NCBI GenBank assembly: GCA_044892525.1
Contig: CM097885.1
Coordinates: forward strand, 16,742,001 to 16,806,000
DNA length: 64,000 bases
Source: Schmidtea polychroa
Taxonomy: Eukaryota
Direction of reading: 5' to 3'
The position numbers and the translations under genes are program-made. The notes under the pieces are model-generated. The model did not search any database. It was given only the letters and a program-made list of their open reading frames with translations, and was not told where the DNA came from. This document shows, one piece after another, positions 21,701-24,232 of this stretch; position 1 is the first letter of the stretch; every line of letters begins with the position of its first letter.

Positions 21701-24232
21701 GGGTACAGGAATAAGTTTGGCTCCTAAAAATGCTGAATAACTATTTGATCCACAATAGTATTCAAATGTCGCTCTCTGTATTCGACATTCCTTTATCCTT
21801 GTTCGGTAAAATTCTGTTTGTTGATAAACGTAAAATTCTACATCTTCCCTTTTAGCTACTTTGTCGGGATATGCTTCCTTGCATTCCACTGTGTCTACTA
21901 ATGAGTATATTCGTGATAGTATTGGTTCACTACAATCATATGCCGTTAAGGAATTTGTCTGTCTCAATATTCCCATCATTACTAACAACATCATCATCCA
22001 ACTGGTAAATCCACCTGTTCCCCGTGGATTACTCGAAATGTTTTCCGTTAGTAATTCCTCATTTAACTCATATTTTCCTTTTGTCTCTTTTATCTCCCAA
22101 AACTTGTGTTCGGTCATCCATGTTCCGAAATTCACTTCTATAATATTAGTCAACCTATCTAAGGCTGCTTGAATTCCTGACTGATCATCCTTAAGTATCA
22201 TTAAGGCATTTTTAAACATTAAGGCTAAAATCGTTATCATTTTCCCTTTCGTCATTCCTTCATTTAGGAATTGTTCTGCCACTTTGAACATTTCTTGTTC
22301 CGTGGTATTTCCTGGGATCTTTCCCATTGTTTTCTTTATCTTTTCAGTGATTTTCTCAACGTTTATATCTTTATCTTTCTTGATTTGCCATTCAGGCTTA
22401 ATCAATCGTAATATCTGATTTAATTTCCTCCATGTTTCTGTTTTACTACTGGCGTCTCCAACGCTTTTATCTATTTGACTAGCTATTCCTGCTAATGCCT
22501 GTCTAGTAACATTTTGCATAGTTACTGACCTTAGGAGTTCTCTTGGAGGCGGGTTCATTTGACTCTTTCTCGGTCTCCCTCTCCTCTCCTTCTTTCTCCT
22601 ATTTTCGACAAACTTCGGGCTCACCCTATCCCTTGGTGGCTCCAATAATTGCGAGGTACTTGCTCCAATGTTTGTCTCATTCTGGTTTAGTTGTATGATT
22701 TTATCTTCTTCTGGTGGAAATATCTCGATCAACTCATCCTCTGTGTTATCGAGTTCCTTTAAATATCTATCTATCTCTTCATCGAGATCTACAGTCTTTG
22801 CTGGCTCTAGATGAGTATTATCATCTACTTGTTTCTGCTCGAGAGGAACTGTCTCCTCCTCAATTTCTGCATTATCCGGCAATCTCAAAGTTGCCCACTG
22901 ATCCTTTGGAAACTCTATAAACAATATCAGTACTATTGTTTCCTCTTGGGGAAAACATCCCACATCTACTAGAAATTCGTCGTCATCCACCTGACAACCA
23001 TGTATCATTATTAGGAATGATTCTTTTACTATTTCTGATATCCTTTTTCTCAGTTTCTTTACTCTATGATAACATGAGAATTGTTGTATCAGGTGTCCTC
23101 TCCTGGGTATCCTGATATCTAACATCACTGGACCTTGTCTACCTTCCAAATGTCTGATAACATGTCCATTTTTAATCAACAGCATCTTCGCTTGTGTCTG
23201 AAATTGTGATGTCTCTTTTACTAAAGGCACCACCAATGGCATTATCTCTCTAAGAGTATCTACTGGGATTCGCAACTCCAGTATCCAATCCATTGTCATC
23301 TTATTGGCCTCCCCATCTCTTGGGTTTTTCATCAGCTCGATTCCCAATCTATGTGGTACGGCTGATATTTGATTTAATTGATCAATTTCAATCTCGCTTA
23401 TTGTAAGGACATTATCCAAGTCCACTACTGTAACAGTTTCCTTGTGAAACTTTGCTTTTATAACCATATGTTTCCCTGATAGTATACCACAATCTAACAG
23501 GGTTTCTCCCTCTAATAACCTTTCTCCTAATAAATATAGTTTGCATTTCAATTGAGGTTTTACCACAGAAACTCTCTTTGCCAATGCTTCTACCTTTTCA
23601 CTTGGGTTAATTGTATATCTACGAAAACAACCCTTTGGGAGAGATACAAAAATTGTAGAATCCTCCAGATTCTCTCTTTGTTTCCAATTTAAGCCAATAT
23701 TTCTCAGAATTTCTCTCAATTCTGGATAATATTCCTCATTGCTATCTAATTCTGATATGATATCCATTACTTTGTCAACCTCATTCTCATTAACGGGGTT
23801 TAAACGAATATTTTCTAATTTCTGTCTCATTTCTCTTTGCCATACGCTCTTGCGTAATAATACTTTTCTACAGTCATCGATGGGATTTCTTTCCTCTTTC
23901 GATGTTTCTCTAACCTTTATTGGTTCATTGCCACATTCACCTCGCATGGATGATGTGACTATAAGATCTTCCGGCTCACTGACCGAAGCCCATCTTTTTT
24001 CCAAAACTTCTGTTGGAACAATTACTTTAGCTGCTGGATCCATGTCCATAGCCTCACGATTTTTAACTGGTGAAACCGGTAAACCTTCTATTTCTCTGTT
24101 GGCTTCTGGCTCCATGACCATAGCCACTAGATTTTTCCTGGGTGAAACCTGTAAACCCTCACAGACCTCTGGTTCTATGACCATAGTCTTTTCCTCTTTG
24201 TCCTCATGTGGACTTTCTTGAAGCATCAACAC
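18665..24232 (-). CDS. 1855-aa polyprotein: 2 ubiquitin-like domains, AT-hook, Bcl-2-like domain, signal peptide plus viral glycoprotein with TM anchor, aspartic protease, start of RT
   Basis: UBLs ~23451-23660 and ~22918-23131; RRGRPRK ~22570; BH1/BH2-like region ~22090-22510; LTAYDC glycoprotein start ~21949; TM ~20250-20330; AIIDSGS protease ~19515 with IVGMD. Confidence 0.85.
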   Translation of the reverse strand: MLMLQESPHEDKEEKTMVIEPEVCEGLQVSPRKNLVAMVMEPEANREIEGLPVSPVKNREAMDMDPAAKVIVPTEVLEKRWASVSEPEDLIVTSSMRGECGNEPIKVRETSKEERNPIDDCRKVLLRKSVWQREMRQKLENIRLNPVNENEVDKVMDIISELDSNEEYYPELREILRNIGLNWKQRENLEDSTIFVSLPKGCFRRYTINPSEKVEALAKRVSVVKPQLKCKLYLLGERLLEGETLLDCGILSGKHMVIKAKFHKETVTVVDLDNVLTISEIEIDQLNQISAVPHRLGIELMKNPRDGEANKMTMDWILELRIPVDTLREIMPLVVPLVKETSQFQTQAKMLLIKNGHVIRHLEGRQGPVMLDIRIPRRGHLIQQFSCYHRVKKLRKRISEIVKESFLIMIHGCQVDDDEFLVDVGCFPQEETIVLILFIEFPKDQWATLRLPDNAEIEEETVPLEQKQVDDNTHLEPAKTVDLDEEIDRYLKELDNTEDELIEIFPPEEDKIIQLNQNETNIGASTSQLLEPPRDRVSPKFVENRRKKERRGRPRKSQMNPPPRELLRSVTMQNVTRQALAGIASQIDKSVGDASSKTETWRKLNQILRLIKPEWQIKKDKDINVEKITEKIKKTMGKIPGNTTEQEMFKVAEQFLNEGMTKGKMITILALMFKNALMILKDDQSGIQAALDRLTNIIEVNFGTWMTEHKFWEIKETKGKYELNEELLTENISSNPRGTGGFTSWMMMLLVMMGILRQTNSLTAYDCSEPILSRIYSLVDTVECKEAYPDKVAKREDVEFYVYQQTEFYRTRIKECRIQRATFEYYCGSNSYSAFLGAKLIPVPLIIPPEDCVNAFRSKTVKIDDEVTRSEEGKKLGITITRGGPIADDGSCQGRKKLRGSNVVSYVVTVEDYTVELIEYEGAFEVSTGKMMSHPECNAKFGYCKTSLAVLTYQSMRDFCDLGYLKKVVFSRLDGKSFTSQDTKQSGWGDKKAHKTKKEEVPEKNTAVVLVSKDPTDAIRLVRKKQTTKCGVLTFETNYKGIYLAHKYVPAAESLHLSDIKITKYINNKIDFLYHDLQKQLLDVYQEVILNDCRLNREIIRNRLAISIANPDLVMPMLTEEGTFGRILGEAIYSYQCKAVEVEVTRYDQCTVELPVRYKGKLRFMMPVSHQLLKEDKSPLKTVCNPAMSPLYKINNIWISLPDRKPPSKPVEVLQATKLETKMEFRPLNEMSKGGVYTPEEIEEARRAIVFPQIRDRGVTEIITRFYQSYDGKPDYNLLFGPEHYKQAASNVIRKIWGRFTSFGIFVAGCSGIYAIIMILKIIISQLFSTYSIFKIGGWSWKLLLGMCPVCADFAVFHHHNKEIKRMKRQNLTKHQLIKYEYSHRDNGNSDEGGNLEGYETSDNTSTNPDNKKPKFKNFENRNYQQHPVKDKNRKGLEWPVKYLSPYTTRKKIISEQVEEEMIKRLDFRTSIDIAAPLPYPKYNMKFETMPAIGTSAIEMIPRYPFSTLERLKENYQEEIKSEDDKDSENQQKFRDNIRGISTIFMVNIGKKTNKPTIKLKVNRHTVHAIIDSGSDLTLIEANLLNEKELQAIVPTLTGATGANGQPINVIGTLECELRLCDQKFRHDIKVTRKCMAECIVGMDILKKLKDIVFDCATGELVKMTGRKRKTYSVDVVFLDRTVTIPPRTERVFFVATHQEVKGDVIFEPSEQFVNRYKMPMVQNLATVRGGRIPIRLTNLASKSLKLYPETKVGKIMQLANVPKESEKVQEDERDPDIEYYDAPSCDSKALTRKENIRVNQLLRKYDQVFAKHEYDLGQVNILEHEIKLTENKPIKYARIEYLKVYKGPWINKLN

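Follow-up and report, generated by a model that had tools for sequence, protein, structure and literature searches.

Ubiquitin-like and Bcl-2-like domains as putative host-control cargo in the polyprotein of a planarian errantivirus

Why would a single polyprotein encoded in a planarian genome carry two ubiquitin-like domains (UBL1 and UBL2) and a basic, AT-hook-like motif? The 64-kb stretch of Schmidtea polychroa DNA analysed here (the window) contains a long stop-free frame on the minus strand (P0001, 18665-24253, 1862 aa), and all three lie in it where a sequence-only reading had placed them, with UBL1 starting at aa 199 (23659) and UBL2 at aa 375 (23131). The frame is inside a young LTR retrotransposon of the Gag-Env-Pol errantivirus type, and the features of this element and its flank are as follows.

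26547..26718, no strand: (ATT)57 run flanking the insertion, read from the sequence.
25645..26547, minus strand: 5' LTR (TG...CA), from pairwise LTR alignment; repeat family D9.
25624..25642, minus strand: primer-binding site, directly 3' of the LTR; 17 identical bases in the relative L002.
24241..25569, minus strand: gag, broken; Retrotrans_gag E 0.08, 3+1 zf-CCHC, 38% identity to L002 Gag.
18665..24253, minus strand: P0001 frame with cargo, Env, protease and the start of reverse transcriptase (RT); stop-free, 1862 aa.
23684..23845, minus strand: three-helix domain A, aa 137-190, before UBL1; by DSSP on the AlphaFold model, with no convincing Pfam family.
23441..23665, minus strand: UBL1, aa 197-271, predicted beta-grasp, without di-glycine; from Pfam, profile, model and structure search.
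23150..23386, minus strand: five-helix domain B, aa 290-368; from the model, kept together with UBL2 in relatives.
22907..23134, minus strand: UBL2, aa 374-449, predicted beta-grasp with a near-invariant acidic loop, without di-glycine; from profile, model and structure search.
22565..22585, minus strand: basic AT-hook-like or NLS-like motif, aa 557-563, patchy in the family; basic residues flank an R-G-R-P core with a chance expectation of 0.016 in the P0001 frame, but Pfam AT_hook gave no match at E<=10, in a search whose HMMER filters can lose short motifs.
22088..22516, minus strand: putative Bcl-2-like domain, about aa 580-722; Pfam Bcl-2 E 6e-4 to 9e-4, under cut-off.
21941..22003, minus strand: hydrophobic segment, aa 751-771, probable Env signal peptide; 13-residue hydropathy mean 2.1.
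20219..21940, minus strand: Env, class III/chuvirus-type fusion glycoprotein; Pfam Monjiviricetes_fusion (PF24664) E 8e-78.
19283..19573, minus strand: aspartyl protease; Pfam RVP E 3e-8.
18345..18734, minus strand: RT fragment; RVT_1 E 1e-6, frame change near 18730.
16097..18161, minus strand: 3' accessory frames in three pieces; partial homology to L002 ORF2, E 2e-18.
14955..15858, minus strand: 3' LTR, from pairwise LTR alignment.

The two LTRs are 99% alike (six mismatches and one indel over 903 aligned bases), and the (ATT)n run into which the copy had been said to insert is indeed present, with a 4-base target duplication that is compatible on both flanks and not unique within the microsatellite. 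The LTRs, the primer-binding site and a Gag with CCHC knuckles are those of Ty3/gypsy errantiviruses of the GAG-ENV-POL kind, and the domain order runs Gag, helical domain A, UBL1, helical domain B, UBL2, acidic linker, basic motif, Bcl-2-like domain, signal peptide, Env, protease, RT. Env thus sits between Gag and protease, upstream of the RVP domain, and has a C-terminal transmembrane segment by hydropathy (aa 1307-1341). The primer-binding site, which we take to be of the tRNA-Trp type, is identical over 17 bases only in the distant relative L002 (one of ten loci), and the 64-kb window holds no tRNA gene. The copy is 11.6 kb long and internally deleted. Its gag is disrupted by an in-frame stop (24637-24639), a frame change near 24250 sets gag off from the long frame, and the remaining RT, RNase H and integrase are absent, with a gap from about 18429 (tblastn with L002 ends at L002 aa 2040, and the contigs of other copies depart from the window at 18427); the protease-RT-RNase H-integrase order is complete in L002. 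We infer a defective and recent insertion, either non-autonomous or damaged after it inserted. Pfam scans returned no family for the 3' accessory frames, nor for a 120-aa segment between protease and RT in the window copy and L002, and other segments of the element, which we presume to resemble dUTPase and exonuclease, gave no Pfam match.

As a single sequence, UBL1 matched the Pfam ubiquitin family at E 0.005, under the curated cut-off, and UBL2 had no Pfam match. Against PDB, a profile of UBL1 and its relatives matched a redesigned ubiquitin (E 2e-5) and Hydra-1ubq (E 9e-4), and ubiquitin-like chains made up six of its ten matches; for the UBL2 profile they made up nine of ten, each weak (E 0.1-0.9), and for a second UBL2-unit profile neither of two. 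An AlphaFold2 model of aa 135-452 from a 20-row alignment reached pLDDT 90.1 and pTM 0.70 (a single-sequence fold of aa 190-460 gave pLDDT 31), and in it both domains have the beta-beta-alpha-beta-beta-beta order. All 50 rows listed by the structure search were ubiquitin-like or related beta-grasp chains, aligned at model residues ~64-136 and/or 237-317, with a best match of Z 11.7 (rmsd 1.8 A) for UBL2 and of Z 10.2 (rmsd 1.5-1.9 A) for UBL1, and the top Foldseek entries were linear polyubiquitin and ISG15 (E 3e-9). On the predicted structure, therefore, UBL1 and the more diverged UBL2 are both beta-grasp ubiquitin-like domains, as had been proposed. The third such domain suspected between them is not there in the model, where the interval is a beta-hairpin followed by five helices (helical domain B, with no significant Pfam or PDB sequence match). 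Among Atlas leads below 0.9 were three ubiquitin-type clusters, which are not counted as evidence.

The origin of the pair was also considered. HHalign related UBL1 to UBL2 at 29% probability (E 6e-4) and helical domain A to B at 0.4%, in UBL alignments that left out P0005, which carries both units; the idea of a duplicated helix-plus-UBL unit was dropped on these values, and the pair may stem either from duplication or from a second capture. The helical-B plus UBL2 unit is common to nine of the 11 relatives found, and the UBL2 acidic loop (positions 51-54) is almost fixed. The UBLs and helical domains are fused in frame to Gag in L001, L002, L004 and P0010, and the intact L002 holds Gag, two UBLs, the Bcl-2-like domain, Env and Pol, including RT, RNase H and integrase, in one frame of 3184 aa. 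Word-index protein searches gave no cargo match among proteins of 1024-3259 aa or 1746-4985 aa. Between L004-type copies, dN/dS was 0.11-0.12 for unit A (three pairs), 0.07-0.17 for unit B (three pairs) and 0.14 for the Bcl-2-like domain (one of three pairs, the other two being saturated). The cargo is thus under purifying selection in this sister family, which is not the window copy's own; dN/dS of the linker is also below 1 (0.07-0.29, six pairs), hence selection on the domains is only modestly stronger.

Directly behind the basic motif, and followed by the Env signal peptide, is a stretch that the sequence-only reading did not mention. Pfam Bcl-2 matched it in three lineages, all under cut-off (L001 at E 0.04 and L002 at E 0.07, besides the window copy), and was absent in every scan for three of six aligned members; Atlas gave no usable match. 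A family profile, which left out P0002 (a chimeric gene model with a calcium-channel half), matched Bcl-2-family chains in all 60 PDB matches listed, the best 60 of 102 at E<=1 (best E 2e-4), and the Bcl-2-like profile also retrieved three unnamed proteins. Similarity in the BH1 and BH2 regions weakly suggests that aa 580-722 are Bcl-2-like. The BH1 tryptophan of Bcl-xL is replaced in all six rows, a departure from the canonical BH1 of BH3-binding members, and the BH3-binding groove may therefore be altered. A hydrophobic segment follows ~20-40 residues past the BH2-like motif in the window copy and in all six relatives examined (hydropathy mean 1.3-2.9 in the relatives), so that the signal peptide sits where a Bcl-2 tail anchor would. 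Counting against an anchor role are its h-region of ~13 residues, short for a lasting anchor, and an in-frame stop in L001 between the Bcl-2-like domain and the hydrophobic segment.

Taken as a whole, we lean somewhat towards reading the region as accessory host-control cargo carried by a Ty3/gypsy element with an envelope gene, a Gag-Env-Pol errantivirus of the same kind as planarian Burro and the Smed errantiviruses, with membrane-anchored Bcl-2-like and UBL adaptors, and the UBL/Bcl-2 cargo itself is most likely a putative host-control cassette. The polyprotein would thread into the ER at the Env signal peptide, which after signal-peptidase cleavage would stay on the C-terminus of the Bcl-2-like domain, the site of the tail anchor in cellular Bcl-2, leaving the cargo exposed to the cytosol at the membrane on which Env is produced. 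There the Bcl-2-like domain could hold down death or stress signals of the producing cell. The UBLs would serve as built-in adaptors that undergo neither conjugation nor cleavage by deubiquitinases. Through its acidic loop, UBL2 would join helical domain B in binding a fixed partner in order to recruit or sequester it; this partner most likely belongs to a ubiquitin or death pathway of the host. UBL1 would be a later addition. The basic motif may be an optional nuclear-localisation or nucleic-acid-binding patch, with no part in choosing the insertion site.

Other readings of the UBLs turn on their C-termini and surfaces. The terminal di-glycine that marks a conjugatable modifier, already noted as missing from both, occurs in 0 of 10 aligned UBL1 rows and 0 of 14 UBL2 rows, which together with the model supports the earlier suggestion that they would be non-conjugatable. 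It also speaks against a role as cleavage sites for host deubiquitinases, such as ubiquitin inserts provide in the polyproteins of pestiviruses. We regard this reading as highly improbable even with BVDV polyprotein inserts among the viral structural neighbours; the element, moreover, encodes its own protease. The other part of that suggestion, that the UBLs are proteasome-binding modules, is weakened. RAD23/Dsk2-type proteasome and ubiquitin receptors read a hydrophobic patch; at the positions equivalent to L8/I44/V70 of ubiquitin, the window copy has P/Y/K in UBL1 and P/M/I in UBL2. Among relatives the patch positions vary freely and are often charged, the I44-equivalent being Y, T, R, K or E in UBL1 and M, E, V, S, L, I or Q in UBL2, and the V70-equivalent K, E or D in all ten UBL1 rows, and the unconserved I44 patch counts against proteasome shuttling. 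The UBLs of RAD23, Dsk2, midnolin and NUB1 are structural neighbours (Z 9.7-10.9, tied with many others) and RAD23 is a weak UBL1 profile match (E 0.14), but a fold in common demonstrates no function. The UBLs could conceivably act as decoys; RAD23/Dsk2-like proteasome-docking or ubiquitin-receptor decoys strike us as unlikely.

Somewhat less improbable, although still not probable, is that the UBLs and helical domains belong to the architecture of the Gag precursor and engage no partner in the ubiquitin pathway of the host. They might insulate folding, space out the protease cuts or, much as a matrix does, connect to the stalk of Env in the membrane. The in-frame fusion to Gag and the wide retention of the helical-B plus UBL2 unit fit such a role, and the conserved acidic face could bind basic nucleocapsid or the Env tail, but most Ty3/gypsy elements assemble without such domains, and the adjacent Bcl-2-like domain and the BIR/MATH cargo of Burro point to host control. 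In a further reading domain B, which we take to resemble TFIIS-N domains, would be a TFIIS-N-like (LEDGF-IBD-like) bundle. Together with the AT-hook-like motif it would anchor the pre-integration complex on AT-rich chromatin and explain the (ATT)n insertion, to which the sequence-only reading had speculated that the AT-hook could relate. In the confident model domain B has five helices whose lengths suit such a bundle; in structure searches of that model, the matches listed were filled by the UBLs. Two relatives at 22-25% identity retain the motif. Of the 52407 bases of flanking window, just 1344 (2.6%) lie in perfect trinucleotide runs, which makes this one insertion a somewhat unlikely event. 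Against this, no Med26/TFIIS-N or LEDGF family was among 12 weak Pfam families (10 members) or ten PDB matches for domain B. The motif occurs in three of six lineages (beyond the window copy, P0007/L001 and P0010), is missing in the intact L002 as well as in the L004-type family, and is degenerate in P0012. Its place is towards Gag, at a distance from integrase and beside the likely membrane anchor, and the only other LTR flank seen is ordinary sequence of 70% A+T, neither (ATT)n nor another microsatellite. With the motif in half of the lineages and that flank, AT-repeat targeting is unsupported, and we give the tether little credence. Equally doubtful is a joint reading, in which a LEDGF-like tether in the Gag precursor (a TFIIS-N/IBD-type domain B and the UBL2 acidic face gripping integrase or a chromatin factor, the AT-hook reading AT-rich DNA) is combined with an Env signal peptide that doubles as the tail anchor of the Bcl-2 homologue. 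If it were true, flatworm errantiviruses would have had the UBL-Bcl-2-Env cassette as their ancestral core, and the giant Burro would have arisen as BIR and MATH cargo was added to it.

The host-control reading can be set beside known systems. ISG15, FAT10, the OASL tail, RAD23, parkin and BAG1 share the beta-grasp fold with the modelled UBLs (Z 10-11.7, rmsd 1.5-2.5 A, 8-22% identity). Unlike those of di-UBL proteins, the element's UBLs are not head to tail but separated by ~100 residues that include a helical domain, and they lack the di-glycine and do not keep the hydrophobic patch. Viral Bcl-2-fold proteins include signalling inhibitors of poxviruses, and African swine fever virus Bcl-2 chains (5ua4, 6tzc) match the profile of the element's Bcl-2-like domain at E 0.013-0.015; in contrast to viral homologues, this domain is embedded in a retroelement polyprotein and followed by an Env signal peptide, and its BH1 tryptophan is replaced.

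The closest parallels are the giant gypsy-like planarian LTR retrotransposons Burro/GYPSM1 (Jurka 2007, Grohme 2018). According to PMC6431247, their frame holds Gag with CCHC knuckles, a Ubi2/SUMO-like and a BCL2-like domain, a mononegavirus-like Env and PR-RT-RH-IN. The two systems are alike in having UBL, BCL2, Env and protease in one frame, with Env between Gag and Pol, and differ in size (>30 kb and ~4900-5100 aa, versus 11.6 kb in the deleted window copy and 3184 aa in L002). Burro/GYPSM1 also has BIR, MATH/TRAF, ankyrin, Smc and midasin regions, none of which appeared in Pfam scans (E<=1) of P0001 or L002 ORF1, and a dUTPase-like domain between PR and RT, where the 120-aa segment of our elements matched no family. 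One UBL is named in Burro, compared with two here. A captured IAP region of Burro1 is reported, at second hand in PMC13465017, to protect stem cells from caspase-mediated death. Smed_errantivirus_4, a Platyhelminthes GAG-ENV-POL errantivirus with an HSV/gB-type Env (Chary and Hayashi, PMC13524379), has a printed Env stretch whose first 50 residues agree with the window Env at 36 positions in a count by eye, and the other five Smed errantivirus entries there are visibly more distant; similar but not identical, it appears on this Env stretch to be a sister family. That source leaves the cargo unannotated, with 'ubiquitin' and 'bcl' occurring 0 times in the main text and, in seven supplements, only inside an assembly name. 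We found no published description of the tandem UBLs or of the cargo of compact elements, which Grohme 2018, Jurka 2007 or Repbase may contain. This is not a new kind of system: the UBL-BCL2-Env-protease-RT order was published in 2019 for Burro/GYPSM1 and the element type was catalogued in 2026. What appears to be new is the doubled UBL in a compact element.

Relatives of Burro of ordinary size thus carry the UBL and Bcl-2 part of its cargo without the IAP part, and their UBLs, present as one or two copies, now have a confident predicted fold. The acidic loop of UBL2 and helical domain B would form a single conserved surface, and this is the place to look for a partner. As the domains are small and expressible, the way in which a retroelement may handle host cell death and ubiquitin signalling becomes testable.

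The two ubiquitin-like domains (UBLs) and the AT-hook-like basic motif lie in one frame of a retrotransposon, laid out as follows.

18665–24253, minus strand: stop-free frame P0001, 1862 aa, holding the UBLs and the basic motif
14955–15858 and 25645–26547: LTRs, with 6 mismatches over 903 aligned bases and one indel

The LTR termini are TG...CA, with a compatible 4-base duplication at the flanks inside an (ATT)n run. Pfam detected Gag knuckles upstream of the frame, a fusion glycoprotein (Env) of Monjiviricetes type within it (E 8e-78), and also a retroviral protease and RT fragment in the element. 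This copy is defective, with an in-frame TGA stop in gag (24637–24639), frame changes near 24250 and 18730, and most of RT, RNase H and integrase missing. Contigs from all four public runs cover the element, with many variants among them, and two of the contigs listed diverge from the window sequence at 18427, the start of the gap. The family therefore has many copies, and the window element is a damaged one among them. In an intact relative, metagenome locus L002, the UBL/Bcl-2-like/signal-peptide arrangement, RT, RNase H and integrase all fall within a single frame of 3184 aa; L002 and the window element have the same primer site. Single in-frame TGAs were observed in L002 (9955–9957, separating ORF1 from ORF2) and in the related locus L001 (3058–3060, between the Bcl-2-like domain and signal peptide); like that in the window gag, they may reflect readthrough or mutation, which single copies cannot distinguish. 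A 3' accessory frame (window 16639–17601; L002:9958–11781) matched no Pfam family, and we take it to resemble a DEDDh-type exonuclease. Two related database proteins, P0002 and P0012, are chimeric gene models that fuse family pieces with a calcium channel and with Tam41, probably mis-spliced predictions across intronic insertions.

Searched alone, UBL1 scored E 0.005 against Pfam ubiquitin, under the cut-off, and UBL2 had no Pfam match. Relatives for profiles came from a search of 1.84 billion representatives (n = 11), and a metagenome scan of 465 candidate stretches added 10 loci. The UBL1 profile with relatives matched a redesigned ubiquitin (E 2e-5); nine of ten matches to one UBL2 profile were ubiquitin-like chains, all weak, and another UBL2 profile returned none. 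AlphaFold2 modelled aa 135–452 from a 20-row alignment at pLDDT 90.1, predicting three helices that lead into a beta-grasp, then a hairpin, five further helices and another beta-grasp. Ubiquitin-like chains aligned to both domains of the model (Z 10–11.7, best rows rmsd <2 Å), and Foldseek was concordant. On this predicted structure both UBLs are real, as the sequence-only reading had proposed; its possible third UBL falls away, the interval being the hairpin and five helices. Profile comparison showed no more than a weak resemblance between UBL1 and UBL2 (29% probability), and no relation was detectable between the helical domains preceding each (A and B).

Directly behind the basic motif lies a domain overlooked in that reading. 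Its Pfam Bcl-2 matches were all under the cut-off (window, E 6e-4 to 9e-4; L001, 0.04; L002, 0.07), and three rows of the L004-type metagenome family had none. With a six-row profile, Bcl-2-family chains made up 60/60 of the matches listed (best E 2e-4), and the domain is weakly identifiable as Bcl-2-like. The BH1 tryptophan is replaced in all six rows. In the window and all six relatives examined, a hydrophobic segment lies ahead of Env, some 20 to 40 residues past the BH2-like motif; we read it as the Env signal peptide, and it would occupy the tail-anchor place of cellular Bcl-2 proteins.

The helical-B + UBL2 unit is common to nine of 11 relatives, and the UBL2 acidic loop is kept, positions 51, 54 and 56 being identical in 15/15 covering rows. 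UBL1 is present, giving two UBLs, in the window, L002, the L004-type family and database protein P0005, and absent from L001/P0007 and P0010; in L001 and P0010, Gag is fused to a single helical+UBL unit of UBL2 type with the basic motif, which L002 and the L004 type lack. Among L004-type copies dN/dS was 0.11–0.12 for cargo unit A, 0.07–0.17 for unit B and 0.07–0.29 for the linker, ratios showing purifying selection on the cargo in this sister family.

We lean towards reading the UBL/Bcl-2-like cargo as a host-control cassette. The signal peptide would keep the Bcl-2-like domain anchored to the ER on its cytosolic side, and from there the domain would dampen death or stress signalling; the UBLs would be integral adaptors, UBL2 holding a fixed partner through its acidic face together with helical domain B. 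That the UBLs and helical domains are instead structural parts of the Gag precursor seems rather unlikely. Proteasome receptors read ubiquitin's hydrophobic patch. At what we take to be patch positions 44 and 70 (ubiquitin numbering, register from alignment to ubiquitin), position 44 is often charged across UBL rows and UBL1 position 70 is charged in 10/10; the patch is not kept, which weakens the earlier suggestion of proteasome-binding modules and leaves docking or decoy functions improbable. Neither UBL ends in di-glycine in any row (UBL1, 0/10; UBL2, 0/14), so the domains are non-conjugatable, as had been noted, and deubiquitinase-cut spacers are scarcely credible. A chromatin tether, which we rate as very unlikely, would build on helical domain B; the putative likeness of this domain to TFIIS-N gained no support from Pfam and PDB sequence searches.

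The sequence-only reading had also linked the AT-hook to insertion into (ATT)n. The core motif is improbable by chance (0.016 occurrences expected in the frame). It also follows UBL2 in P0010 and in P0007/L001, where the Bcl-2-like domain comes directly after it. It was found in three of six lineages, was in-frame in one of ten metagenome loci, is absent in P0004, degenerate in the close relative P0012 and unmatched by Pfam. Perfect trinucleotide runs form only 2.6% of the flanking window, so the insertion is mildly unusual, but the one other LTR flank among the 24 loose ends listed of 622 (run X3, at 15858) is plain sequence of background A+T. With two insertion sites known, AT-hook-driven targeting of (ATT)n is a low-confidence proposal. 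The retrotransposon is flanked by inverted copies of an 18–19-bp-repeat element (14220–14954 and 26985–27830), each beginning with (ATT)n, with related pieces at 40328–40679 and 55919–56291. Broken frames at 30405–31409 and 37363–39750 are presumably hAT-like transposase. A Polinton/Maverick-like block (41979–54756) encodes an rve integrase with chromodomain, its frame bearing an (AAT)n expansion (52016–52061), an A32-type ATPase and, we presume, a long polymerase-like frame and capsid-like frames.

PMC6431247 describes a Ubi2/SUMO-like domain, BCL-2, mononegavirus-like Env, PR, dUTPase-like and RT in one frame of the planarian Burro/GYPSM1 elements. The window element has its UBL, Bcl-2-like, Env, PR and RT parts in that order; between PR and RT, it and L002 have a 120-aa segment that matched no Pfam family. 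The window element falls outside Burro proper, being one third of its size, and, unlike Burro proper as described in that paper, neither the window element nor L002 has BIR, MATH or ankyrin in Pfam. Nine flatworm Gag-Env-Pol errantiviruses are catalogued in PMC13524379, whose accessible part does not annotate a UBL/Bcl-2 cargo; the Env of Smed_errantivirus_4 shown there is alike to the window Env at 36/50 residues, counted by eye, and this likeness points to a probable planarian host. A role of the Burro1 IAP region in stem-cell survival is cited second-hand in PMC13465017. While the UBL, BCL-2, Env order was thus already known from Burro (PMC6431247), the window element adds a compact Burro relative with a doubled UBL, a confidently predicted UBL fold and one candidate binding surface.
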